Assembly (NCBI GenBank): GCA_043818275.1
Contig: JBDRFY010000073.1
Location: 1 to 33,744 of the forward strand
Length of the DNA: 33,744 nucleotides
Reading direction: 5' to 3'
Source of the DNA: a bacterium
GTDB taxonomy: Bacteria > Babelota > Babeliae > Babelales > JAUWHS01
Shown: positions 138-32,325 of the stretch, one piece after another
How the letters are laid out: every line of letters starts with the position of its first letter
Position numbering within the stretch: position 1 is the stretch's first letter
Program-made: the position numbers and the translations under genes
Notes under the pieces: model-generated
What the model was told of the DNA's origin: nothing
What the model saw: only the letters and a program-made list of their open reading frames with translations
Databases searched by the model: none

Positions 138-1171
138 TCATTTTCAACTCCTTTTAATTTAACCAAATCAAAATCAAATTTTATCGGTTGACCAAATTTA
201 ACAATATTTAAATTTTTACCTTTTAAAAATTGCTCATTTTCAGACCACCATTTTTTTAAACGTTTTATAGGATCATCAAAATGATCAAAGGCTATTCTGA
301 ACGTTCCCCAGTGCATTGGAATAAAACTGTGGGCATTCAAATCTAAAAACGCCTGTCCGGCCTGCTCGGAACTTACATGCGAGTGAATCACCATTTCTTC
401 AGGTTCATTTGGACCAATTGGCATTAACACCACATCTATTTTTTTAAATTTTTCGCCGATTCTTTTAAAATGATTATCATAAGCGCTATCACCCGCAAAA
501 TAAATTTTATAACCATTAAATTCTATCATCCAGCTACCCCACAAGGATGTGTTCATATCGAAAAGACCTCTTGTAGACCAATGAAATGCTGGTAAAAAAT
601 GAAAAGATATTTCATCTGAATTAAAATCATTTAAAAAGAAAGTCTTCTTGTTATCCCATTTAAATTCCATAACTTTTTCTATTTTTAATTTATTAAACCA
701 TCGCTTATTTCCCTGAGGAATAAGAAAAACTGGATCATATTTTTTAGTCACATATCTTACAGCGTTTATCTCAAGATGGTCTCTGTGATTATGAGAAATT
801 AAAACATAGTCAATTTTAGGTAAATCATTCAAACTAATTCCTGGTGGAAAATTTCTATTAAAACCAAGACCCAGATTCCCAAAAACAGGATCAGTTAAAA
901 TATTTACATTACCTATCTGAATCAAAAAAGTTGCCTGACCAACCCATGTGATAATTGGCTCAAAACTTTTTTCTATTGGTTTTTTATTGCAAATCCATTC
1001 ATCTTTTATGGCGGGAGTAAAAACAAATTTTCTGTTATCCTTTACAAACCGGCTACGCATTATCGCCAAAAAAGATTGTCCGATACTTTTAAAATATTTT
1101 TTAAAATATGTTTTTCTGCTTTCATTAGAATGATTAAAATAATAACCATCTTTAAAAAAATATCTTTGCAT
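113..1171 (-). CDS. MBL-fold metallo-hydrolase (NAPE-PLD/RomA-like)
   Basis: Motifs TDPVF, SHNHRDH, PAFHWSTRG, FAGDS, PIG and PMHWGTF. Start moved to MQRY (1171) behind AGGGAA. The last codons (CAKRSAC*) lie inside the putative intron. Confidence 0.9.
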   Translation of the reverse strand: MQRYFFKDGYYFNHSNESRKTYFKKYFKSIGQSFLAIMRSRFVKDNRKFVFTPAIKDEWICNKKPIEKSFEPIITWVGQATFLIQIGNVNILTDPVFGNLGLGFNRNFPPGISLNDLPKIDYVLISHNHRDHLEINAVRYVTKKYDPVFLIPQGNKRWFNKLKIEKVMEFKWDNKKTFFLNDFNSDEISFHFLPAFHWSTRGLFDMNTSLWGSWMIEFNGYKIYFAGDSAYDNHFKRIGEKFKKIDVVLMPIGPNEPEEMVIHSHVSSEQAGQAFLDLNAHSFIPMHWGTFRIAFDHFDDPIKRLKKWWSENEQFLKGKNLNIVKFGQPIKFDFDLVKLKGVENECAKRSAC

Positions 1172-1179
1172 AAAATTCC

Positions 1180-2277
1180 CTATATTATAACTCCACAACC
1201 TAAACAAATTTCATCATCATAAAAAACAGCAAATTGCCCTGGAGCTATTCCCTGATCTCTTTTATCGATCCTTACAATTCCTAAATTTTCATTTTCAAAA
1301 TTCAATTCACAATTATAAAATTGCTCTCCATGCCTTACTTTTACTTGTAAATTGTTCTTATCAGGCTTTTGACCTGAAATCCAGTTAAAATTTGAAACAT
1401 TAAAAGTATCCCGCGCTTTATCTGATGAAAAATAATTTTTGGAAATATAAACAATATTTTTGGCCGTATCTTTGTCTACTACATACCAGGGACCGCCCGA
1501 AAGACCAATTCCTTTTCGTTGCCCAATCGTGTAATACCAAAAGCCTTCATGTTCACCAATAATTTTTCTTGTTTCAAATTCAATCAAATTACCTTTTTTA
1601 ATACCCAAATGATGTTTCAAAAATTCGTCATATTTAATTTTTCCCAAAAAACAAATTCCCTGACTGTCTTTTCTTTGTTTTGTTGCTAAATCAAATTTTT
1701 CAGCCAAAACTCTCACCTCAGATTTTAAAAGATTTCCAATTGGAAACATAGCCCGCGCAAGCTGTTTCTGATTTAGAAGCGATAAAAAATAAGTCTGATC
1801 TTTAACTTTATCTTTTGCTTTTTTTAATAAAAATTTTCCATTAATTTTCTTTTCCCCTGAGGGGAACCCGCCGAAGCCTTGTGCGAAGGCTGGGCTAACT
1901 TGAGCGTAATGACCTGTTGCAACATGCTCAAAACTCGGATCAATTTTATCGAAAAAAGCTCCAAACTTAATTTGTTGATTACAAAATAAATCAGGACTTG
2001 GAGTGCGACCATTTTTTACTTCATTAATTGCATAAGAAACAACAGATGACCAATATTCTTTTTGCAAAGAAAGAACCTGAAATGGAACATTTAATTGCTC
2101 ACAAACTTTTTCAACATATTCCAAATCTTGTCTCCAGGGACATTCACCCAAATGAGACAATTCTTCTTCTAACCAAATCTTTAAATAAAAGGCGGTAATA
2201 TTATGTCCCTGATCTTTTAATAATTTTAAAGAAACAGAGCTATCAACCCCACCAGAAAATAATACGGCTATTTTCAT
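1180..2277 (-). CDS. mnmA: tRNA 2-thiouridine(34) synthase MnmA, with a 14-aa palindrome-derived insertion
   Basis: Motifs SGGVDS, PDLFCN, ATGHYA, KDQTYFL, DSQGICF, YTIGQRKG and APGQFAVFY. Start taken at MKIAVL. Confidence 0.97.
   Translation of the reverse strand: MKIAVLFSGGVDSSVSLKLLKDQGHNITAFYLKIWLEEELSHLGECPWRQDLEYVEKVCEQLNVPFQVLSLQKEYWSSVVSYAINEVKNGRTPSPDLFCNQQIKFGAFFDKIDPSFEHVATGHYAQVSPAFAQGFGGFPSGEKKINGKFLLKKAKDKVKDQTYFLSLLNQKQLARAMFPIGNLLKSEVRVLAEKFDLATKQRKDSQGICFLGKIKYDEFLKHHLGIKKGNLIEFETRKIIGEHEGFWYYTIGQRKGIGLSGGPWYVVDKDTAKNIVYISKNYFSSDKARDTFNVSNFNWISGQKPDKNNLQVKVRHGEQFYNCELNFENENLGIVRIDKRDQGIAPGQFAVFYDDEICLGCGVII
1855..1896 (+). repeat. Family A GC-rich palindrome plus small hairpin, in frame within mnmA
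   Basis: CCCGCC-GAA-GCCTTGTGC-GAA-GGCTGGG (1867-1894) next to TTCCCC-TGA-GGGGAA (1852-1866). Encodes SPAFAQGFGGFPSG in MnmA. Confidence 0.85.
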
Positions 2278-12184: not shown

Positions 12185-12895
12185 ATGTACATATTAGAAG
12201 GAAATATAGGTGCCGGTAAATCAACTTTTTTGGAACTTTTGAACAAAAACATTCCTGAAATAAAAACTTACCAGGAACCCAAGGATAATTGGACAAAACA
12301 GGTTTACGGACAATCATTACTTGCCAATTTTTATAAAGAACCAAAACGATGGGCCTATACCATGGAAACTTTAACTATGATGTCCAGAGCAAAATTGTAT
12401 ATGAAAGATCAGTTAATTCCGGATCAAAGATTTGTTTTGGAACGCTCTGTTTATTCCGGACACTATTGTTTTGCTTTAAATGGTTATCAACATGGATTTT
12501 TTACCCAAATTGAATGGGATATTTATACTAAATGGGTAGATTTTTTAATTAATCAAAACTGCAAACCGCCGCACGGATTTATTTACTTAAAAGCAAACCC
12601 CGATGTCTGTTTTAAACGAATTCAAAAAAGAAACAGAATAAGTGAAAAGGACGTTTCTTTATCCTATATAAAACAAATTGATGAACACCATGACAATTTT
12701 TTAATTAAAAGGGATGGGGTTTTTGAAAGTTTAAAAAACGTACCGGTTTTAATACTTGATTGTAATGAAGATTTTGTTGAAAATGAGCAAATTTTAAACA
12801 CACATCTTTATAAAGTTAAAAATTTCATTGAACAAACAATAGGCCTGATTCAGGAACCAAAGACAACCTCTTTGATGAAAGAAACTCAAATTTAG
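12185..12895 (+). CDS. Deoxynucleoside kinase
   Basis: EGNIGAGKST P-loop, EP, ERS and RIQKRNRISE lid. Confidence 0.95.
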   Translation: MYILEGNIGAGKSTFLELLNKNIPEIKTYQEPKDNWTKQVYGQSLLANFYKEPKRWAYTMETLTMMSRAKLYMKDQLIPDQRFVLERSVYSGHYCFALNGYQHGFFTQIEWDIYTKWVDFLINQNCKPPHGFIYLKANPDVCFKRIQKRNRISEKDVSLSYIKQIDEHHDNFLIKRDGVFESLKNVPVLILDCNEDFVENEQILNTHLYKVKNFIEQTIGLIQEPKTTSLMKETQI

Positions 12896-12925
12896 CTTTT
12901 TTTGCATAAAACATGAATTTACTCT

Positions 12926-12954
12926 TTGACTTACTAAATTGTTTTATTTAGACT
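12926..12954 (+). promoter_or_regulatory. Sigma70-like promoter for tRNA-Val
   Basis: TTGACT-N17-TAGACT upstream of the tRNA. Confidence 0.6.
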
Positions 12955-12991
12955 TTCTTCATGTATTTTAAATGAAATTTTTAAAAATGAA

Positions 12992-13068
12992 GGGCGAATA
13001 GCTCAGCTGGTTAGAGCACCTGCCTTACAAGCAGGGGGTCACAGGTTCGAATCCTGTTTCGCCCACCA
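12992..13068 (+). tRNA. tRNA-Val (TAC)
   Basis: Acceptor GGGCGAA/TTCGCCC, anticodon arm CCTGC-CTTACAA-GCAGG, GGTTCGAATCC T-arm and encoded CCA. Confidence 0.98.
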
Positions 13069-13285
13069 GCCTCTGCTTGCTTCGCAAGCTACGGCTGGGC
13101 AGGCCAGCTTTTTAAATTGAATTGATATTAATAGAACCATATTGCGAAGACTGTCCGGCGTAGTAAAACTTACATTAAAACTTAGTAGTTCGAAGACGGA
13201 CTGGCACGGCCAGTTTATCCGGCGAAACCTTAGCAAAGTCGGACCTGTCCCGACGAAGTACCGCTCCTTGCGGCACGAAGTCGGA
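13066..13285. repeat. Cluster of four family A palindromes downstream of tRNA-Val
   Basis: Copies at 13066-13108 (minus; stem uses the tRNA CCA), 13151-13200, 13218-13243 and 13244-13285. All follow stem-G(A/T)A-hairpin-(purine-rich, usually GAA)-stem. Confidence 0.85.
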
Positions 13286-13337
13286 TTGAAATTTTTTCTC
13301 TATTTGATAAATTTTCAATATCATTGAAATAAATTGT

Positions 13338-13413
13338 TCCCCGATAGCTCAGTTGGTAGAGCAAACGACTGTTAATCGTTGGGTCGCAGGTTCGAGTCCT
13401 GCTCGGGGAGCCA
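13338..13413 (+). tRNA. tRNA-Asn (GTT)
   Basis: Acceptor TCCCCGA/TCGGGGA, anticodon arm AACGA-CTGTTAA-TCGTT, GGTTCGAGTCC and encoded CCA. Confidence 0.98.
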
Positions 13414-13581
13414 GCTTTCGCTCTAACGAGCTTCAGCTGGGCAGGCCAGCCAATTAATAAAATTAATATTAATCGAAAAGTTAAGCGAAAGATGCCTTTC
13501 ACTCCATAACTCATTAAAGCAAAGGCGGAAACAAATGGCCTATGAATTTGCCTGCCACGCCGAAGCCTTGGCGCAGGCGGG
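13411..13581. repeat. Family A palindromes downstream of tRNA-Asn
   Basis: CCAGCT-TTC-GCTC-TAAC-GAGC-TTC-AGCTGG-GCAGGCCAGC (13411-13450), a degenerate copy near 13485-13529, and CCTGCCACGCC-GAA-GCCTTGGC-GCA-GGCGGG (13551-13581). Confidence 0.85.
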
Positions 13582-13668
13582 AACGTTATCTTAAAACGTC
13601 ATCCGGTCGTGCGTTTTCTATAAAACGTTTGTAAAACACCTTTGTTTTTTACAAATTTTGGGGAAAAA

Positions 13669-14439
13669 ATGAAAAAATTTATTCTTTTTTTATTTATGTT
13701 CTTTGGGTCTATTTTCGCAAATAAAAATATTTTTGATCACCCAAAAATTCAACAACCAAATCTTCCTTTAATACATGAAACTGGAAATTTTAAATTGTAT
13801 TGTATTGCTGAAGATAAGCAGATTAGCTTAAAGGTTTTAGATGTTGCTGAAAAAAATTTCGAACAATGTTCTATCAATTTTAATCATAAATATAGTAATA
13901 AAATAAACTTATATATTTTTCATTGCTTACAAGATTTGCACGATGCCGTTGGAATGCCAGACGCAAAAGATCGTGTAGTAAACATATACGAACCAGAAAC
14001 ACATTCTTTTTTTACAGTCAATCCAGAGAATCATGGGTCATACTGTTCGGCTGAAGAGATTATTCAATTAAATATACATGGTTTAACTAATTTATTTATT
14101 AAAGATAAATATACAAAAGAAATTCCTTTTTGGTTTACTCATGGTCTTGGTCTTTGGAAAGCTAAATATATAGATAAAAATATTTTAGATGATCTAACTC
14201 TAAATCATGAGCTTGTCCCATCGTTACAACAATTGGAAAACTTTGATTTTTCTACAGATATCCATCGAGCAAGTTCATATTTAATCGTTGAATTTATTAA
14301 TCAAAAATGGGGATGGGAAAAAATATTAGATATTTTAGAAGACTATTCTTCTTTTGAAAAAATATTGGATGTTACCGAAAAAACCTTTAGAGACAAATTA
14401 ATTAACTATTTAGATAATACTATATCGCCAAAGGAATAG
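13669..14439 (+). CDS. Secreted peptidase MA (gluzincin)-like protein with degenerate catalytic motifs
   Basis: Signal peptide MKKFILF. IHGLTN where HExxH is expected and PFWFTHGL where PxWFxEG is expected. SSYLIVEFINQKWG C-terminal pattern. Confidence 0.7.
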   Translation: MKKFILFLFMFFGSIFANKNIFDHPKIQQPNLPLIHETGNFKLYCIAEDKQISLKVLDVAEKNFEQCSINFNHKYSNKINLYIFHCLQDLHDAVGMPDAKDRVVNIYEPETHSFFTVNPENHGSYCSAEEIIQLNIHGLTNLFIKDKYTKEIPFWFTHGLGLWKAKYIDKNILDDLTLNHELVPSLQQLENFDFSTDIHRASSYLIVEFINQKWGWEKILDILEDYSSFEKILDVTEKTFRDKLINYLDNTISPKE

Positions 14440-20141: not shown

Positions 20142-20462
20142 TTAACTTTTCTTTATTTTTCCATCCCTCATAACTTTAATTTCATATCCGCCTACGCCAA
20201 GCTTCCCGACTTTGCCATGCTTCGTCGAGGCGAGCGGCGGGACAGGTTCCATTTTAAGCTCAGTATTTTTTACAGTTTCGTTATTTGAACGGTTGTTGGT
20301 TCTTTTGTTCTCGGTTTCACCAGAAAGTCTATTTTCAATATCTGTTACTTTTTCAACCAGAATATTAAAACCCTTTTCTAACAAATCTACTTTTTGTTCG
20401 AGTGTCGATTTAGCACTTAAACCAGCAACTAAAAACGGTAATAACAAAATAAGCTTTTTCAT
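20142..20462 (-). CDS. Small secreted coiled-coil protein with a nested palindrome insertion
   Basis: Signal peptide MKKLILLL behind GGAGG; LEQKVDLLE coiled coil; 20 aa encoded by repeats. Confidence 0.8.
   Translation of the reverse strand: MKKLILLLPFLVAGLSAKSTLEQKVDLLEKGFNILVEKVTDIENRLSGETENKRTNNRSNNETVKNTELKMEPVPPLASTKHGKVGKLGVGGYEIKVMRDGKIKKS
20187..20246 (-). repeat. Two nested 30-bp family A palindromes, in frame
   Basis: Minus strand: CCTGTCCCGCCG[CTCGCCTCGACGAAGCATGGCAAAGTCGGG]AAGCTTGGCGTAGGCGGA = PVPPLASTKHGKVGKLGVGG. Confidence 0.85.
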
Positions 20463-20533
20463 ATTATTCCTCCAAATAGTCATTGACTAACAATCAACAA
20501 CAAAGCTTAAGATTGATAATTATTTATATTAAA

Positions 20534-30451: not shown

Positions 30452-31237
30452 TTATATGTTATATCTTTTAAGATTTTCTTCTCTTTTAGCATTAAAAGTT
30501 TCAACAGAAATTTTATCGTCATCAATAACAAACTTGTTAACTTCTTCTAAAGCATATTTCAAATCCAAAAAACTATATTTTTCGCCTGGATTAAATCCAA
30601 CAAAAAAATTTTCTAACTCTTTATTTTGCAAATCTTTAATATAATGCATATAGTTTGTCAAATTTTTAAAATCATCCACGAACATTAATATCAAAATTAT
30701 TTCAAACAAATAGGTGTTCTTATGATTAGCAAATAATTTTTTCGCTTCCTCACTATTAAAATATTTATCCCAAACCGTTTGTCCTTGTAAATTTTTTATA
30801 TCTACTCTAGCACCAGCCATAAGCAAATAAGCAAAAAGAGCTTTTTTTGTATAAAGACTATCCATAATATAATGCAATGGTGTATCACCATTATCATCTT
30901 GAATGTTTACATCTGCTTTTTCCTTAAATATTAATTCTTTGATAAATGGGATAGCTTCTTTATAATTATTTTTTGTAAGGTTTACAGACAATGCAACATG
31001 CAAAGGTGTACGTCCTTTATCATCTTGCATATTAATCAATTTACTTTGCGGACAATCTTTATCCTTCAAAATATAACCAACAATAGCTGAATTAAAGGCG
31101 GATTTATCGAAATTTGAAGCCGCTTTATGAATAGGAAATTTATTCCTTCGCCCCAAAAACGCAGAAACATTATTGTTTAACATAGAAACTGCCAACAAAG
31201 CGGCAAGAATTATTTTTTTAAAACTCAACGTATTCAT
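30452..31237 (-). CDS. Secreted ankyrin-repeat protein
   Basis: GRTPLHVA, ADVNIQDDNGDTPLH and GARVDIKN; signal peptide. Start at MNTL behind GGAGG. Confidence 0.92.
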   Translation of the reverse strand: MNTLSFKKIILAALLAVSMLNNNVSAFLGRRNKFPIHKAASNFDKSAFNSAIVGYILKDKDCPQSKLINMQDDKGRTPLHVALSVNLTKNNYKEAIPFIKELIFKEKADVNIQDDNGDTPLHYIMDSLYTKKALFAYLLMAGARVDIKNLQGQTVWDKYFNSEEAKKLFANHKNTYLFEIILILMFVDDFKNLTNYMHYIKDLQNKELENFFVGFNPGEKYSFLDLKYALEEVNKFVIDDDKISVETFNAKREENLKRYNI

Positions 31238-31509
31238 CTCTCTAACCTCCAATTTTGGTTAAATAAAAAACTGACATAAAAACCTTGCTATACTTGCAAC
31301 GAAATCTGTCCTTAGATTCCGCATTTATTTCATATATAAAACTTACCATAAGCCTTTATTTATCGCAAAAGGCCGGTTGCAAGAGTAGCAATTTTGGGCA
31401 AAAATCAAATATTTTTGAAAAAAAGCAAGAAAAAGGGCATATTTTTAGAATAAAAATTTATAAACTTATTCCTCAAGAAACAAGAAATTCTCTTATCGCA
31501 AATGGTCTA

Positions 31510-31590
31510 ATATCATCAAAAGAATAGTGGTTAAAATAGTCCAACAGGGGGAGCCAGTCTTCGCCCTTTGGGCTACGCCTGGCACGGCCA
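31510..31590. repeat. attR-like junction: 34-bp flank, tRNA-Asn 3' fragment and family A palindrome
   Basis: AGTCC-AACAG-GGGGAGCCA then GTC-TTC-GCCC-TTT-GGGC-TAC-GCCTGG-CACGGCCA. The following AT tail resembles the tail after the tRNA-Val element. Confidence 0.75.
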
Positions 31591-31707
31591 TTTTTTTAAT
31601 TGAATTAATATTTATTGAATTAAAAAACGAGAAATAACTTGATTGCAAACAATCAGATACCATCAAATGAACAGTGAGTAAAATAGGCCCCAAAAAACAA
31701 TTATGAT

Positions 31708-32325
31708 TTAATTGCCAATAGCAACAACTCGGGCCAAGGCAGAATCTGTTTCTGTCTTTAACGGTAAAGCAAAAACTTTAAAATTTTTAACATCTAATAA
31801 TTTTTCAAGGTTTGTTAAATTTTCAATAATCAAAATATTATTTTTGAAAAACATTTTATGAATTTCGAATGGATATTTATCTGGTGAGAAAAAATCGATT
31901 CCAATCATTTTAATTTTTTGCTCAATGAGTTTTTGCGCAAAACATGGTGAAAGAATTGGATGATTTTCAAAGTATTCTTGTGAACCAAATTTCTTATCAA
32001 ATCCGGTTAAAATTAAAACAATTAAATCTTTTTTATTTGGCATTTTTTTCAGTAATGATTCATCTATTTTTTTATTTCGCGCGTCGATCAAAAAGCCATT
32101 GCCAATAAATTTATCTACAGAAAAATCAGAAAGTAAAATTTTGGAATTTGTTAAATGACCTGGTCCATCAATATGCGTTCCAACATGCATACCGGTAACT
32201 AATTGCCAGTCATTATACTTATCTTTTTTAAGATTTTTTATTTTTTTAATTGATGCCGGTTCATCAAAACGACAAACCGGCATTATTTTTGTAAATTTGT
32301 GAGTTAAATCAATTATTGTTGTCAT
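31708..32325 (-). CDS. Cyclase family protein (kynurenine formamidase-like)
   Basis: HVGTHIDGPGH, GIDFFSPD, IIENL and ALPLK. Confidence 0.92.
   Translation of the reverse strand: MTTIIDLTHKFTKIMPVCRFDEPASIKKIKNLKKDKYNDWQLVTGMHVGTHIDGPGHLTNSKILLSDFSVDKFIGNGFLIDARNKKIDESLLKKMPNKKDLIVLILTGFDKKFGSQEYFENHPILSPCFAQKLIEQKIKMIGIDFFSPDKYPFEIHKMFFKNNILIIENLTNLEKLLDVKNFKVFALPLKTETDSALARVVAIGN

Follow-up and report, generated by a model that had tools for sequence, protein, structure and literature searches.

A putative selfish cassette with a predicted GIY-YIG nuclease gene directly after the CCA ends of bacterial tRNA genes

GC-rich hairpins that begin exactly at the encoded CCA of tRNA genes occur in the genome of a bacterium of the phylum Babelota. 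Then, what could such hairpins be? Here, we suggest, with a probability of about 70%, that they (family A) are the 5' end-pieces of a small selfish cassette, which is located directly after the CCA of tRNA and tmRNA genes and carries the gene of a predicted nuclease. The analysis started from a stretch of 33,744 nucleotides (contig JBDRFY010000073.1 of assembly GCA_043818275.1), called the window below. We show the anatomy of the element, its exact junction with the CCA, its presence or absence at orthologous sites, and its physical link to the nuclease gene across phyla. The three copies in the window are non-autonomous or decayed.

The coordinates of the features in the window are listed in Table 1. 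A first-pass annotation of this DNA had proposed that the hairpin begins exactly at the CCA after tRNA-Val, after tRNA-Asn and at 31554, and both the sequence and the folds agree with it: the stems close with TGG, and the CCA:TGG pairing is kept in the minimum-free-energy folds of all three copies. In the copy behind tRNA-Val (-25.4 kcal/mol with the CCA paired), the segment S1 (CCAGCC, 13066-13071) pairs with S2 (GGCTGG, 13093-13098), and between them lie the loop TCT, the stem P2 (13075-13089, with the inner stem GCTTGC/GCAAGC) and the loop TAC; S2 is followed by the loop GCAGG, the segment S3 (CCAGC, 13104-13108) and a T-run. For the copy behind tRNA-Asn, S1 (CCAGCT, 13411-13416) pairs with S2 (AGCTGG, 13435-13440), P2 is GCTC/GAGC, and the loop GCAGG is followed by S3 (CCAGC, 13446-13450) without a T-run. 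In the third copy, the partner of CCAGTC (31554-31559) is GCCTGG, with a single mismatch, and CACGG, CCA and a T-run follow. The common continuation and the similar AT tail noticed in the first pass are also present, as a C..G loop, the second CCA, and direct repeats between the Val and Asn copies (13087-13115 versus 13429-13457, 83%; 13115-13136 versus 13456-13477, 82%), and so are the inverted copies behind both intact tRNAs, where GCGAAGAC (13144) and GCGAAAGAT (13485) stand before oppositely oriented hairpins.

Table 1. Features of the window related to the family A hairpins (+ and -, strand).
Feature	Position	Strand	Basis and remarks
tRNA-Val(TAC)	12992..13068	+	ARAGORN; Rfam tRNA 77.9 bits; stem P1 starts with the encoded CCA (13066-13068)
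Family A hairpin, copy 1 (Val)	13066..13113	+	Sequence, inverted repeat, model match 36.2 bits
AT-rich spacer AAATTGAATTGATATTAATAGAACCAT...	13114..13143	+	Common to family copies; direct repeat 82%; same tail after other tRNAs
S4 (GCGAAGACTG) and inverted hairpin B (GTCCG...CGGAC), 3' end TGGCACGGCCA	13144..13213	+	Sequence, repeats
Further GC-rich hairpins, arm-GWAG-stem-GWAG-arm type, nested or adjacent	13217..13286	+	Sequence; hairpin census
tRNA-Asn(GTT)	13338..13413	+	ARAGORN; Rfam tRNA 72.3 bits; stem P1 starts with the encoded CCA (13411-13413)
Family A hairpin, copy 2 (Asn)	13411..13452	+	Sequence, minimum-free-energy fold, model match 42.4 bits
AT spacer, S4-like GCGAAAGATG (13485-13494) and degenerate hairpin B (GCCTTT...AAAGGC)	13453..13533	+	Sequence, repeats
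Oppositely oriented A-like hairpin	13550..13582	-	Inverted repeats, 82% complementary to 13430-13446; long-range pairing in fold
GIY-YIG nuclease remnant, last 17 codons and stop (ERYLKTSSGRAFSIKRL*)	13581..13634	+	tblastn, translation
Unit of about 85 nt ending GGGGGAGCCA, upstream of copy 3	31472..31556	+	Twice in G001; not a recognisable tRNA
Family A hairpin, copy 3, and AT tail	31554..31620	+	Sequence, fold, model match 48.3 bits

The stem P1 is formed by the tRNA's own CCA and three element bases XYZ, paired with Z'Y'X'TGG of the element. The two arms of P1 are repeated further downstream, in S3 as another CCA-XY and in the distal S4 as GCGAA-Z'Y'X'-TG. Therefore, the module can fold either as two hairpins or as a central hairpin and a long-range helix. 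For the Val copy, S4 is the near-complement of S1 followed by TTCGC. The same S4 and hairpin B module also precedes GIY-YIG open reading frames (ORFs) at C50 and C18, and in other phyla. The reverse complement of the oppositely oriented hairpin at 13550..13582 reads CCCGCC-TGC-GCCAAGGC-TTC-GGCGTGG-CAGGC.

The three copies differ in what is left of them. The tRNA-Val copy keeps the whole non-coding module and has no ORF; no ORF remnant was found in the hairpins at 13217..13286 either, where tblastn gave nothing convincing. In the tRNA-Asn copy, the nuclease gene is reduced to the last 17 codons and the stop. Each of the four query proteins has its best tblastn match of the window here (E 6.6e-4), and 12 of the 17 residues are identical to residues 63-79 of the C50 protein. 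At 31554, only hairpin A and the AT tail are left, without S4, hairpin B or an ORF downstream. The sequence before 31554 had been called a tRNA fragment, which is not supported: it has only about 9-14 nt in common with the 3' end of tRNA-Asn (GGGGAGCCA and a few bases, nothing more), and Rfam gives no tRNA match there at E<=10. It belongs instead to the unit of about 85 nt in Table 1, one of whose two occurrences in the sister genome is directly upstream of an intact GIY-YIG cassette. The unit was also considered as a tRNA or other structured RNA and rejected, with a fold of -5.4 kcal/mol, zero compensatory pairs on three sequences, and no conserved fold.

The tabulation of tRNA 3' flanks in this genome and its relatives revealed the enrichment at CCA ends. 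The pattern CCA-N3...N3'-TGG (at least 5 of 6 pairs) is present within 100 nt at 27 of the 42 CCA-ending tRNA genes of the genome. This loose pattern also matches 6,274 of the 31,765 CCA sites of the background, but with the second CCA added the background falls to 332 of 31,765 (1%), against 21 of 42 at the tRNA genes. A covariance model gave 25 full-length matches (at least 32 bits; eight of them belonged to its training set) in the same genome, namely 23 tRNA CCA ends, the tmRNA end, and 31549. Among the best 40 model matches in relatives, 35 are CCA ends of tRNAs called by ARAGORN, four are tmRNA-type ends, and one is a tRNA end cut by the contig start. It had been suggested that the element targets tRNA 3' ends whatever the isotype, and this is supported by 15 isotypes in the genome (Ile, Lys, Leu, Arg, Ser, Pro, Asp, Met, Ala, Val, Tyr, Phe, Asn, Gln, and Glu) as well as tmRNA, by presence and absence at orthologues, and by the ORF-bearing form described below. 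No Rfam family matches the trailers, at gathering thresholds in the whole window or at E<=10 in 12900-13700 and 31200-31650, where only the tRNAs and sub-threshold noise appear. In the openly accessible literature, we found no account of GIY-YIG cassettes, or of hairpin elements, located at the CCA ends of tRNAs.

The variation of P1 and P2 is compensatory. With S2 located by a motif that is blind to XYZ (the three bases after CCA), XYZ is perfectly complementary in 69 of 84 trailers with 14 different triplets, whereas shuffles reach 8.6 on average and 20 at most. In 67 aligned copies, 97.4% of the cells pair (20-45% in slid controls), and both sides are changed in 105 cells versus 29.8 in shuffles. 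The observed pairing was reached by 0 of 500 and 0 of 1000 shuffles.

An ORF-bearing, presumably autonomous form, as envisaged in the first-pass annotation, does exist. Behind four tRNAs of the genome, an 80-aa GIY-YIG gene follows hairpin A and the inverted hairpin; that is, four of the six small GIY-YIG ORFs of this genome are located 130-310 nt behind a same-strand tRNA. The complete cassette has the order hairpin A, spacer, inverted hairpin (S4 and B) and the gene of a bare 80-aa GIY-YIG protein of the SLX1/UPF0213 branch, and it ends at the stop codon or within a few bases of it. No Y1 ORF is present in any cassette examined. The four tRNA-linked ORFs match Pfam GIY-YIG (PF01541) with 47.5-60.2 bits (cut-off 22.6), and the protein alignment has the invariant residues Y3, Y5, Y17, G19, R27, H31, N32, and E63, to which we presumptively assign the catalytic roles of the GIY-YIG motif residues (Y-x-Y ... 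Y-x-G, Arg, His/Asn, Glu). The nearest solved sequences are SLX1 (E 3.7e-9), named a structure-specific endonuclease in its PDB entries, and UPF0213 BH0048 (E 1.7e-8). There is no DNA-binding module in the 80-aa protein, since PF01541 covers it from end to end (PF01541 positions 1-72 of 78) and the PDB matches are nuclease domains only. No named NCBIfam family was matched, and one protein has a sub-threshold match to a group I intron endonuclease. In addition, C6 has an intact ORF with another C-terminal remnant downstream of it, and at C18 a complete ORF-less module lies between the tRNA and an older module that lost its CCA partner; both arrangements suggest repeated invasion.

The link to tRNA genes is not confined to this genome. 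Among 536 relatives from many phyla, the best 80 loci were taken, and in 63 of the 80 a tRNA or tmRNA ends no more than 500 nt upstream of the GIY-YIG gene; seven of the 17 without a tRNA in this range had less than 400 nt of upstream sequence. The type-A CCA hairpin is present at 54 of these best 80 loci, and 41 of the 54 begin at the CCA of an intact tRNA or tmRNA. Among the other 26, several (e.g., L028, L044, and L078) start right after the CCA with a stem that does not include it. Therefore, the CCA pairing is common but not obligatory. Cultured carriers of the gene include Asticcacaulis taihuensis, Sneathiella sp., and Pelagibius sp.

Comparison with relatives shows both empty and occupied sites. 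In the Val-Asn-Asp tRNA cluster of G024, G008, G040, and G015, AT spacers of 7-29 nt represent the empty sites, while the sister genome G001 of the same genus has the hairpin behind tRNA-Val and none behind tRNA-Asn, and G020 has minimal units of 31 nt. The site behind tRNA-Asn is thus empty in these four genomes and G001, carries a full cassette in G030, and carries the decayed cassette in the window; a gene-bearing insert is polymorphic (present or absent) at a conserved tRNA-Asn site, as would be expected of a free-standing homing endonuclease gene. In G030, the next gene begins 9 nt past the stop codon of the cassette. For the ORF-bearing copies, closely related sites with and without the insert were not found, so the right boundary rests on the G030 case and the window remnant. 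Two further candidates for this boundary were rejected, namely the tRNA-Asp cassette of G001 (another sub-lineage, with rearranged downstream DNA) and the Asn-Asp spacer of G027 (with an unrelated reverse-strand gene inside). The hairpin co-occurs with the nuclease gene among relatives: 22 of 40 have the hairpin and a strong GIY-YIG match, six the hairpin only, one a GIY-YIG match only (a fragment), and 11 neither, in a table where kin genomes are not independent and the association is overstated. The six of 28 hairpin-bearing relatives without a strong GIY-YIG match include G011, which is 99% complete and has seven hairpins.

How could such a cassette spread? We propose a homing-like process, in which the nuclease would break unoccupied tRNA-gene ends and repair would copy the cassette in. 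The 3' part of the tRNA may serve as the upstream homology in repair, which would explain the short tRNA-like ends at ectopic sites and the stacked older copies. ORF-less modules may be relics, or may have been moved in trans. The pairing with the terminal bases of the target would then reflect insertion or recognition at the DNA level by a structure-specific nuclease, rather than a benefit for the tRNA. Where the host is AT-rich, the S2/S3 hairpin with its T-run may double as a tRNA terminator. It is conceivable, if unlikely, that the CCA:TGG stem itself works in targeting, with a bare SLX1-like nuclease aimed at tRNA gene ends by base pairing of the hairpin arms. The guide pairing with the last bases of the target would then take place in folded or branched DNA of the a-a'-a-a' module, or in a tRNA-like fold of the single-stranded gene. 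A related, similarly unlikely idea is that S1:S2 (with the tRNA's CCA) and S2:S3 with the T-run form an anti-terminator/terminator pair, so that transcription would continue into the nuclease gene depending on the state of the 3' end of the tRNA.

If the cassette reading is true, tRNA and tmRNA gene ends in many bacterial phyla have been colonised by a minimal selfish cassette of 0.1-0.5 kb, consisting of a few hairpins and an 80-residue nuclease, which recognises a feature common to all tRNA genes. It would explain the small 'UvrC-like / GIY-YIG' genes of unknown role behind tRNAs and the build-up of structured GC-rich trailers and tRNA-like fragments there, and would provide a source of some tRNA terminators. 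Moreover, so small a nuclease with a defined class of target sites would be interesting mechanistically, and possibly also in practice. Annotators should not label such trailers pseudo-tRNAs or new regulatory RNAs.

A quite unlikely alternative is that the hairpins are REP-like palindromes tagged with GTAG/GAAG, moved to the 3' side of CCA by Y1 (RAYT/IS200-type) transposases, with the GIY-YIG gene as a passenger or neighbour. The genome has five intact Y1 genes and a broken one, and the census contains 138 hairpins of the build arm-TWC-GC..GC-TWC-arm, in which, read on the opposite strand, G(T/A)AG lies on both sides of the inner palindrome. The target of IS200/IS605 elements is the 3' side of a tetranucleotide, and a short target sequence that pairs with a segment inside the element, with the insertion just 3' of it, recalls the guide/target pairing of IS608. 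However, the hairpins beside the Y1 genes of the genome are of other types (GGGTTTTAACCC / CCCTAACGGG) and do not belong to family A. No Y1 match was found in 12 of the 28 hairpin-bearing relatives, including G032 (16 hairpins) and G020, which is 98% complete in one contig and has 11 hairpins and three GIY-YIG matches, while Y1 genes are present in three of the 12 hairpin-free relatives. Moreover, the hairpin is joined physically to the GIY-YIG ORF across phyla. GTAG-tagged REPs and RAYTs are on record (PMC3733652). REPs and REPINs are short and GC-rich palindromes between genes, which have many copies and frequently form inverted pairs; G(T/A)AG lies next to the inner palindrome, some REP classes have CCA tails, and the palindromes can act as terminators or RNA hairpins. 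Family A partly resembles them, and hairpins A and B do form an inverted pair; in contrast, its outer arms and its location are not REP-like, being tied to tRNA and tmRNA 3' ends where REPs are scattered behind ORFs, and its presence among relatives does not track Y1. We also considered whether family A could be one of the CGTC-tagged REPs that have CCA tails, and rejected this, since the published families have stems of 8-9 bp starting with A/T, and the stems and loops of family A are unlike them (PMC3733652).

A distinctly improbable reading is that of a host device, in which a conserved 3' trailer ends tRNA transcription and/or guides 3' maturation through the CCA pairing, and the nuclease genes are incidental tenants of a convenient, highly transcribed site. 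S2/S3 with the T-run has the textbook shape of an intrinsic terminator, a T-run is present in nine of 22 copies of the genome, a terminator scan picks 13093-13109 with TTTTT in the Val copy, the CCA-containing stem is the thermodynamically favoured fold, and ORF-less copies outnumber ORF-bearing ones (about 23 hairpin-bearing tRNAs versus four ORFs). However, 11 of the 40 same-order relatives have no copy at E<=1e-6, with short AT spacers at the orthologous tRNAs, and only eight of 44 GIY-linked copies of other taxa have the T-run. Copies are nested, stacked, and decayed, and nearly the same architecture recurs with the nuclease gene in unrelated phyla. All four tRNA-Ser genes have a mirror-image copy at the 5' end, which pairs with G1-G2 of the tRNA and would compete with the acceptor stem; together with the cassettes whose stems are free of CCA, these copies argue against an aid to tRNA maturation as the hairpin's reason for being. 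As its other alternative, the first-pass annotation had proposed that the trailer may sequester the CCA in the pre-tRNA and influence 3' processing, which the favoured fold would permit. These 5' copies are genus-specific: in 54 tRNA-Ser genes at 30 loci the pattern flags only two (the locus of this genome), and one more was seen by eye in G001. No sequencing run matched more than 0.13 of the words sampled from 12600-14200, a level that fits matches to common tRNA words alone.

Finally, that GC-rich palindromes of an AT-rich genome merely happen to abut CCA has a next to negligible probability: the loose pattern has the high background given above, but the counts refute chance, with the drop on adding the second CCA, the absence of any shuffle reaching the observed pairing, and the best 40 matches in relatives all at tRNA or tmRNA-type ends.

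The proposed cassette could also be compared with other known systems. Integrative islands and phages use the 3' ends of tRNA and tmRNA genes as attachment sites, and share with the cassette the class of targets and the short copies of the tRNA 3' end beside the element; the cassette differs in that it has no integrase, is only 0.1-0.5 kb long, and joins after the CCA, not inside the gene. IS200/IS605 elements and their miniatures insert directly 3' of a fixed sequence that pairs with a segment beside a hairpin, have no terminal inverted repeats, and have gene-less derivatives. The cassette is similar in all four respects, and their guide pairing is analogous to the hairpin-guided insertion considered above, here built on a GIY-YIG enzyme; in contrast, the cassette has no Y1 transposase or TnpB, and its hairpin module is seen at the left end only. 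To our knowledge, GIY-YIG nucleases do not transpose DNA.

A further parallel is SegB of phage T4, a free-standing GIY-YIG homing endonuclease gene in a tRNA gene cluster (PMC2330249). In both cases, tRNA genes have a GIY-YIG gene between or behind them, which occurs at some of the otherwise conserved sites and is missing at others, and which presumably spreads when a break is repaired and adjacent tRNA sequence is co-converted. However, the cassette protein is a bare catalytic domain of 80 aa, closest to SLX1/UPF0213 and not to Seg/I-TevI, and the cassette is chromosomal in many bacterial phyla, with the junction exactly after the CCA of any isotype or tmRNA, a conserved 5' module of several hairpins with the CCA of the target in its stem, and abundant ORF-less derivatives. 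SLX1 and UPF0213 (YhbQ-like, COG2827) belong by sequence to the same branch of the GIY-YIG superfamily, and UPF0213 proteins have a similar size. For Caulobacter, small COG2827 genes of unknown role are described, and a link to tRNA ends or to a hairpin module is not mentioned for them in the accessible text of that paper (PMC1839093). The genome also has two UPF0213-like paralogues, at C18:20566 and C75:30805, the latter with no ARAGORN-called tRNA near it; counted from the first Met, their length is about 95 aa, with open frames of 128 and 94 aa, respectively, and they constitute a separate subfamily.

Each of the two tRNA genes in the window is followed by a GC-rich hairpin, here called hairpin A, that begins at the encoded CCA itself and reads CCAGCC-TCT-GCTTGC TTC GCAAGC-TAC-GGCTGG at tRNA-Val and CCAGCT-TTC-GCTC TAAC GAGC-TTC-AGCTGG at tRNA-Asn, with GCAGG-CCAGC and an AT-rich tail 3' of both. 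The repeat finder joins the 3' piece and AT tail of the copies at 82-88% identity, and CCA:TGG pairing is retained in single-strand folds of all three window copies (see the table). Thus, the first-pass annotation, which had described hairpins starting at CCA with similar following bases and tail, was accurate. Rfam finds the two tRNAs and no further family in the window. Of the two ORFs flanking the tRNA pair, one looks deoxynucleoside-kinase-like from its sequence, and the other (265 aa) is of unknown function.

Coordinates of the features discussed (C, contigs of this genome; L, comparison loci from relatives)
Feature	Location	Coordinates	Strand	Remark
tRNA-Val(TAC)	window	12992-13068		CCA encoded; ARAGORN, Rfam agrees
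tRNA-Asn(GTT)	window	13338-13413		CCA encoded; ARAGORN, Rfam agrees
Third family A copy	window	from 31554		CCAGTC...GCCTGG-CACGG-CCA-T7
ORFs flanking tRNA pair	window	12185-12895; 13669-14439		
A-like hairpin	window	13550-13582		opposite orientation
Nuclease remnant	window	13581-13631		with stop codon, ERYLKTSSGRAFSIKRL*
~85-nt unit	window	31472-31556		ends GGGAGCCA
~85-nt unit	L146 (sister genome G001, C47)	962-1052		
~85-nt unit	L148 (sister genome G001, C28)	1492-1582		
Generic hairpins (examples)	window	20460-20496; 31852-31878	-	
Generic hairpin	C18	20826-20855		
UPF0213/YhbQ-like gene	C18	20566-20778	-	open frame 128 aa
UPF0213/YhbQ-like gene	C75	30805-31020	+	open frame 94 aa
GIY-YIG ORF and second remnant	C6	11653-12017		behind tRNA-Glu(TTC)
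Intact Y1 gene	C36	2823-3164		
Intact Y1 gene	C59	425-766		
Intact Y1 gene	C60	13535-13876		
Intact Y1 gene	C76	3903-4241		
Intact Y1 gene	C33	18482-18841		
Mirror-image units at tRNA-Ser	C13	27616-27658; 27866-27908		
Mirror-image unit at tRNA-Ser	C50	~52470-52527		
Mirror-image unit at tRNA-Ser	C78	~52450-52508		
Second trailer kind	C18; C62	25598-25780; 45046-45135		tRNA-His, tRNA-Gly(TCC) trailers
Second trailer kind	L012	1584-1700		

The module consists of S1 (CCA plus three bases XYZ), an inner stem P2 with GC at its start and end and bounded by two T(T/A)C loops, S2 (Z'Y'X'TGG), a loop of 4-5 nt (C..G), S3 (CCA plus XY) and, farther 3', S4 (GCGAA-Z'Y'X'-TG), after which hairpin B follows in opposite orientation with the same build (GTCCNCC-GAAG-stem-CGAAG-GNGGAC). 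Since S2 and S4 are both complements of the like-oriented S1 and S3, either two successive hairpins or an S2:S3 hairpin within a long-range S1:S4 helix could form. With S2 located by a motif blind to XYZ, the hairpin was found in 84 of the 156 trailers of tRNA and tmRNA genes sampled in this genome, in relatives and in other phyla, and XYZ, represented by 14 different triplets, was perfectly complementary to Z'Y'X' in 69 of the 84 (shuffles: mean 8.6, maximum 20). In a 67-sequence alignment, 97.4% of the P1 and P2 cells are paired and 105 are changed on both sides relative to the commonest pair, compared with 29.8 after shuffling, while sliding one strand by 1-3 columns leaves a pairing of only 20-45%. 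P1 is the best supported helix; S4 is a perfect complement of XYZ in 23 of 44 cases, and S3 repeats the full XYZ in 17 of 74.

In this genome (1.33 Mb, 30.8% GC), 42 of the 44 tRNA genes end in CCA. The pattern CCA-N3...N3'-TGG (5 or 6 of 6 pairs, within 100 nt) occurs at 27 of these 42, and at 21 a second CCA is additionally present, compared with 332 of 31,765 CCA sites genome-wide. A covariance model trained on 67 distinct copies gave 25 full-length matches of at least 32 bits (8 of them training sequences), of which 23 start at a tRNA CCA; the other two start at the tmRNA gene's CCA and at 31549. Matches were also present in 28 of 40 relatives of the same order. Among the best 40 matches outside its own genome, examined with 150-nt flanks, 35 begin at the CCA of a tRNA called by ARAGORN, 4 adjoin a tmRNA-type end, for which the flank is too short for a tmRNA call, and one adjoins a tRNA end truncated by the contig start. 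The outcome that the first-pass annotation had named as refuting, copies not enriched at CCA ends, is thus clearly contradicted.

A search of this genome with PF01541 returned six small ORFs besides UvrC, four of which (about 80 aa) are located 130-310 nt 3' of a tRNA gene on the same strand, namely tRNA-Arg(CCT), tRNA-Arg(TCT), tRNA-Asp and tRNA-Glu(TTC). Upstream of the first three stand hairpin A, a spacer, S4 and hairpin B, so that the autonomous, ORF-bearing form that had been anticipated does exist. The trailer of tRNA-Glu(TTC) lacks the type-A motif and pairs its CCA in another, longer stem. The tRNA-Asp gene, 3' of tRNA-Asn in relatives, lies here with its full cassette on a separate contig, C21. 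A profile built from the four proteins and searched against contigs of one genome per species found 536 relatives, and the best 80 of the 536, examined for context, come from Dependentiae, Alphaproteobacteria, Verrucomicrobiota, Saccharibacteria and other CPR, Cloacimonadota, Bdellovibrionota and others. Among these 80 loci, 63 have a same-strand tRNA or tmRNA that ends no more than 500 nt upstream, and 54 have a type-A hairpin beginning with CCA, be it that of an intact tRNA/tmRNA (41), of fragments or contig-cut genes (5) or of short degenerate tRNA-like ends (8). Hairpin and strong nuclease-family match occur together in 22 of the 40 relatives, the hairpin only in 6, the protein only in 1 (a fragment) and neither in 11, a count that is descriptive only because kin genomes are not independent.

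The tRNA-linked protein consists of the catalytic domain alone, in which the conserved GIY-YIG family residues are present, and NCBIfam has no named family for it. Its nearest solved relatives by sequence are the SLX1 nuclease domain (E 3.7e-9) and the UPF0213 proteins BH0048 and EF2693, and the Seg/I-TevI homing enzymes are not among its close relatives. Recognition of DNA structure is favoured, since the protein is too small to read a long sequence and PDB entries call SLX1 a structure-specific endonuclease; the nuclease would then recognise either the hairpin module or a tRNA gene end in folded single-stranded form. We class the cassette as a homing-type nuclease gene of the free-standing kind, accompanied by miniature derivatives. 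No description of cassettes of this kind was found in searches of open full text, where the closest printed items include SegB of phage T4 (PMC2330249), followed by work on REP/RAYT (PMC3733652). For Caulobacter, three small COG2827 genes have been reported without an assigned role (PMC1839093). The two remaining small GIY-YIG genes belong to a different, UPF0213/YhbQ-like subfamily (about 95 aa from the first Met); that on C75 is far from every ARAGORN-called tRNA, and that on C18 adjoins a generic hairpin.

Could the hairpins originate from Y1 (IS200/RAYT-like) transposases instead? The genome has five intact Y1 genes, and 138 generic hairpins carry REP-like G(T/A)AG tags (PMC3733652); however, the Y1 genes are flanked by repeats other than family A, a Y1 match is absent in 12 of the 28 hairpin-bearing relatives, including a single-contig genome with 11 hairpins, and across phyla it is the GIY-YIG gene to which the hairpin is physically joined. 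These points argue against the Y1 origin. Hairpin repeats of their own, of the GGGTTTTAACCC and CCCTAACGGG types, flank four of the five intact Y1 genes, and on C59 a generic TWC-type hairpin is nested within such a repeat. The generic build (6-nt arm, T(T/A)C, GC..GC stem, T(T/A)C, arm'; 138 matches) occurs with many other arms (TCCNCC, CCCTAC, TTCTCT, TCAGCC), often nested in longer palindromes.

The nuclease cassette has also left remnants. In a tblastn search of the window with the four proteins, the one consistent best match lies in the tRNA-Asn trailer, with 12 of 17 residues identical to the last 17 of the family; thus, this trailer is a cassette minus codons 1-62, with an A-like hairpin at the break. 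The same search found an ORF remnant neither behind tRNA-Val nor after the third copy. The next host gene is 35 nt 3' of the remnant stop, and 9 nt 3' of the nuclease stop in the relative G030, which places the right end of the cassette near the stop codon, without a right-end hairpin. Downstream of the intact ORF behind tRNA-Glu(TTC) lies a second remnant, C-terminal, 34 residues long and from another copy, which suggests successive insertions at one tRNA. On C18, tRNA-Arg(TCT) is separated by a complete ORF-less module from an older one, which still has the ORF and no longer has its CCA partner, and in several trailers (Ile, Lys, Glu-CTC, Phe) a new unit begins at the CCA of S3. With about 23 hairpin-bearing tRNAs versus four ORFs, we infer that most copies are relics or moved in trans. 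The tRNA fragment formerly proposed ahead of the third copy did not hold up: the ~85-nt unit there is not recognisable as a tRNA and has no supported fold; it could be what is left of a target carried along, or else an RNA gene of unknown kind that ends in CCA. Hairpin A comes next in all three occurrences of this unit in the genus, with an intact GIY-YIG gene following in one.

The Val-Asn-Asp tRNA cluster is kept in relatives, and its spacers are AT-rich, hairpin-free and 7-71 nt long in four of them (G024, G008, G040 and G015). The sister genome, from the same genus, has an orthologous hairpin behind tRNA-Val and plain sequence behind tRNA-Asn; G020 has minimal 31-nt units behind both, G007 and G019 have other variants, and G030 has a complete cassette behind tRNA-Asn. 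By this comparison, the 269 nt between tRNA-Val and tRNA-Asn in the window, and the trailer of the latter, are insertions. A trailer serving purely the host is contradicted by the patchy distribution, the decay and the cross-phylum spread.

All four tRNA-Ser genes of this genome have a mirror-image family A copy at the 5' end, in which the outer stem uses the complement of tRNA G1-G2, with CCC.../...GGG in place of CCA/TGG (CC-CGAC...GTCG-GG, then GCAGG-CCCGAC and the usual AT tail). The covariance model recovers two of the four, and among 30 tRNA-Ser loci examined only this genus shows the mirror form. Such pairing is unlikely to serve the tRNA, since it would compete with the acceptor stem in the pre-tRNA, and pairing with CCA probably belongs to the DNA level. 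Nor is it obligatory, because some cassettes in other taxa begin just behind the CCA with a stem that leaves it out, and a few lie behind tRNA genes without an encoded CCA. S2:S3 with T-rich sequence has the shape of an intrinsic terminator at the Val copy and in 9 of 22 copies of this genome, and in only 8 of 44 nuclease-linked copies of other taxa; a terminator role looks like a secondary use in an AT-rich host. As S1:S2 (with CCA) and S2:S3 are mutually exclusive, a putative attenuation-like switch between them may exist. A second trailer kind begins immediately 3' of the CCA, reads T(T/C)CGTCTTCGC TCTTACGAGC TACGA... and has a stem that excludes the CCA; in G030, it lies upstream of the intact GIY-YIG gene behind tRNA-Asn.
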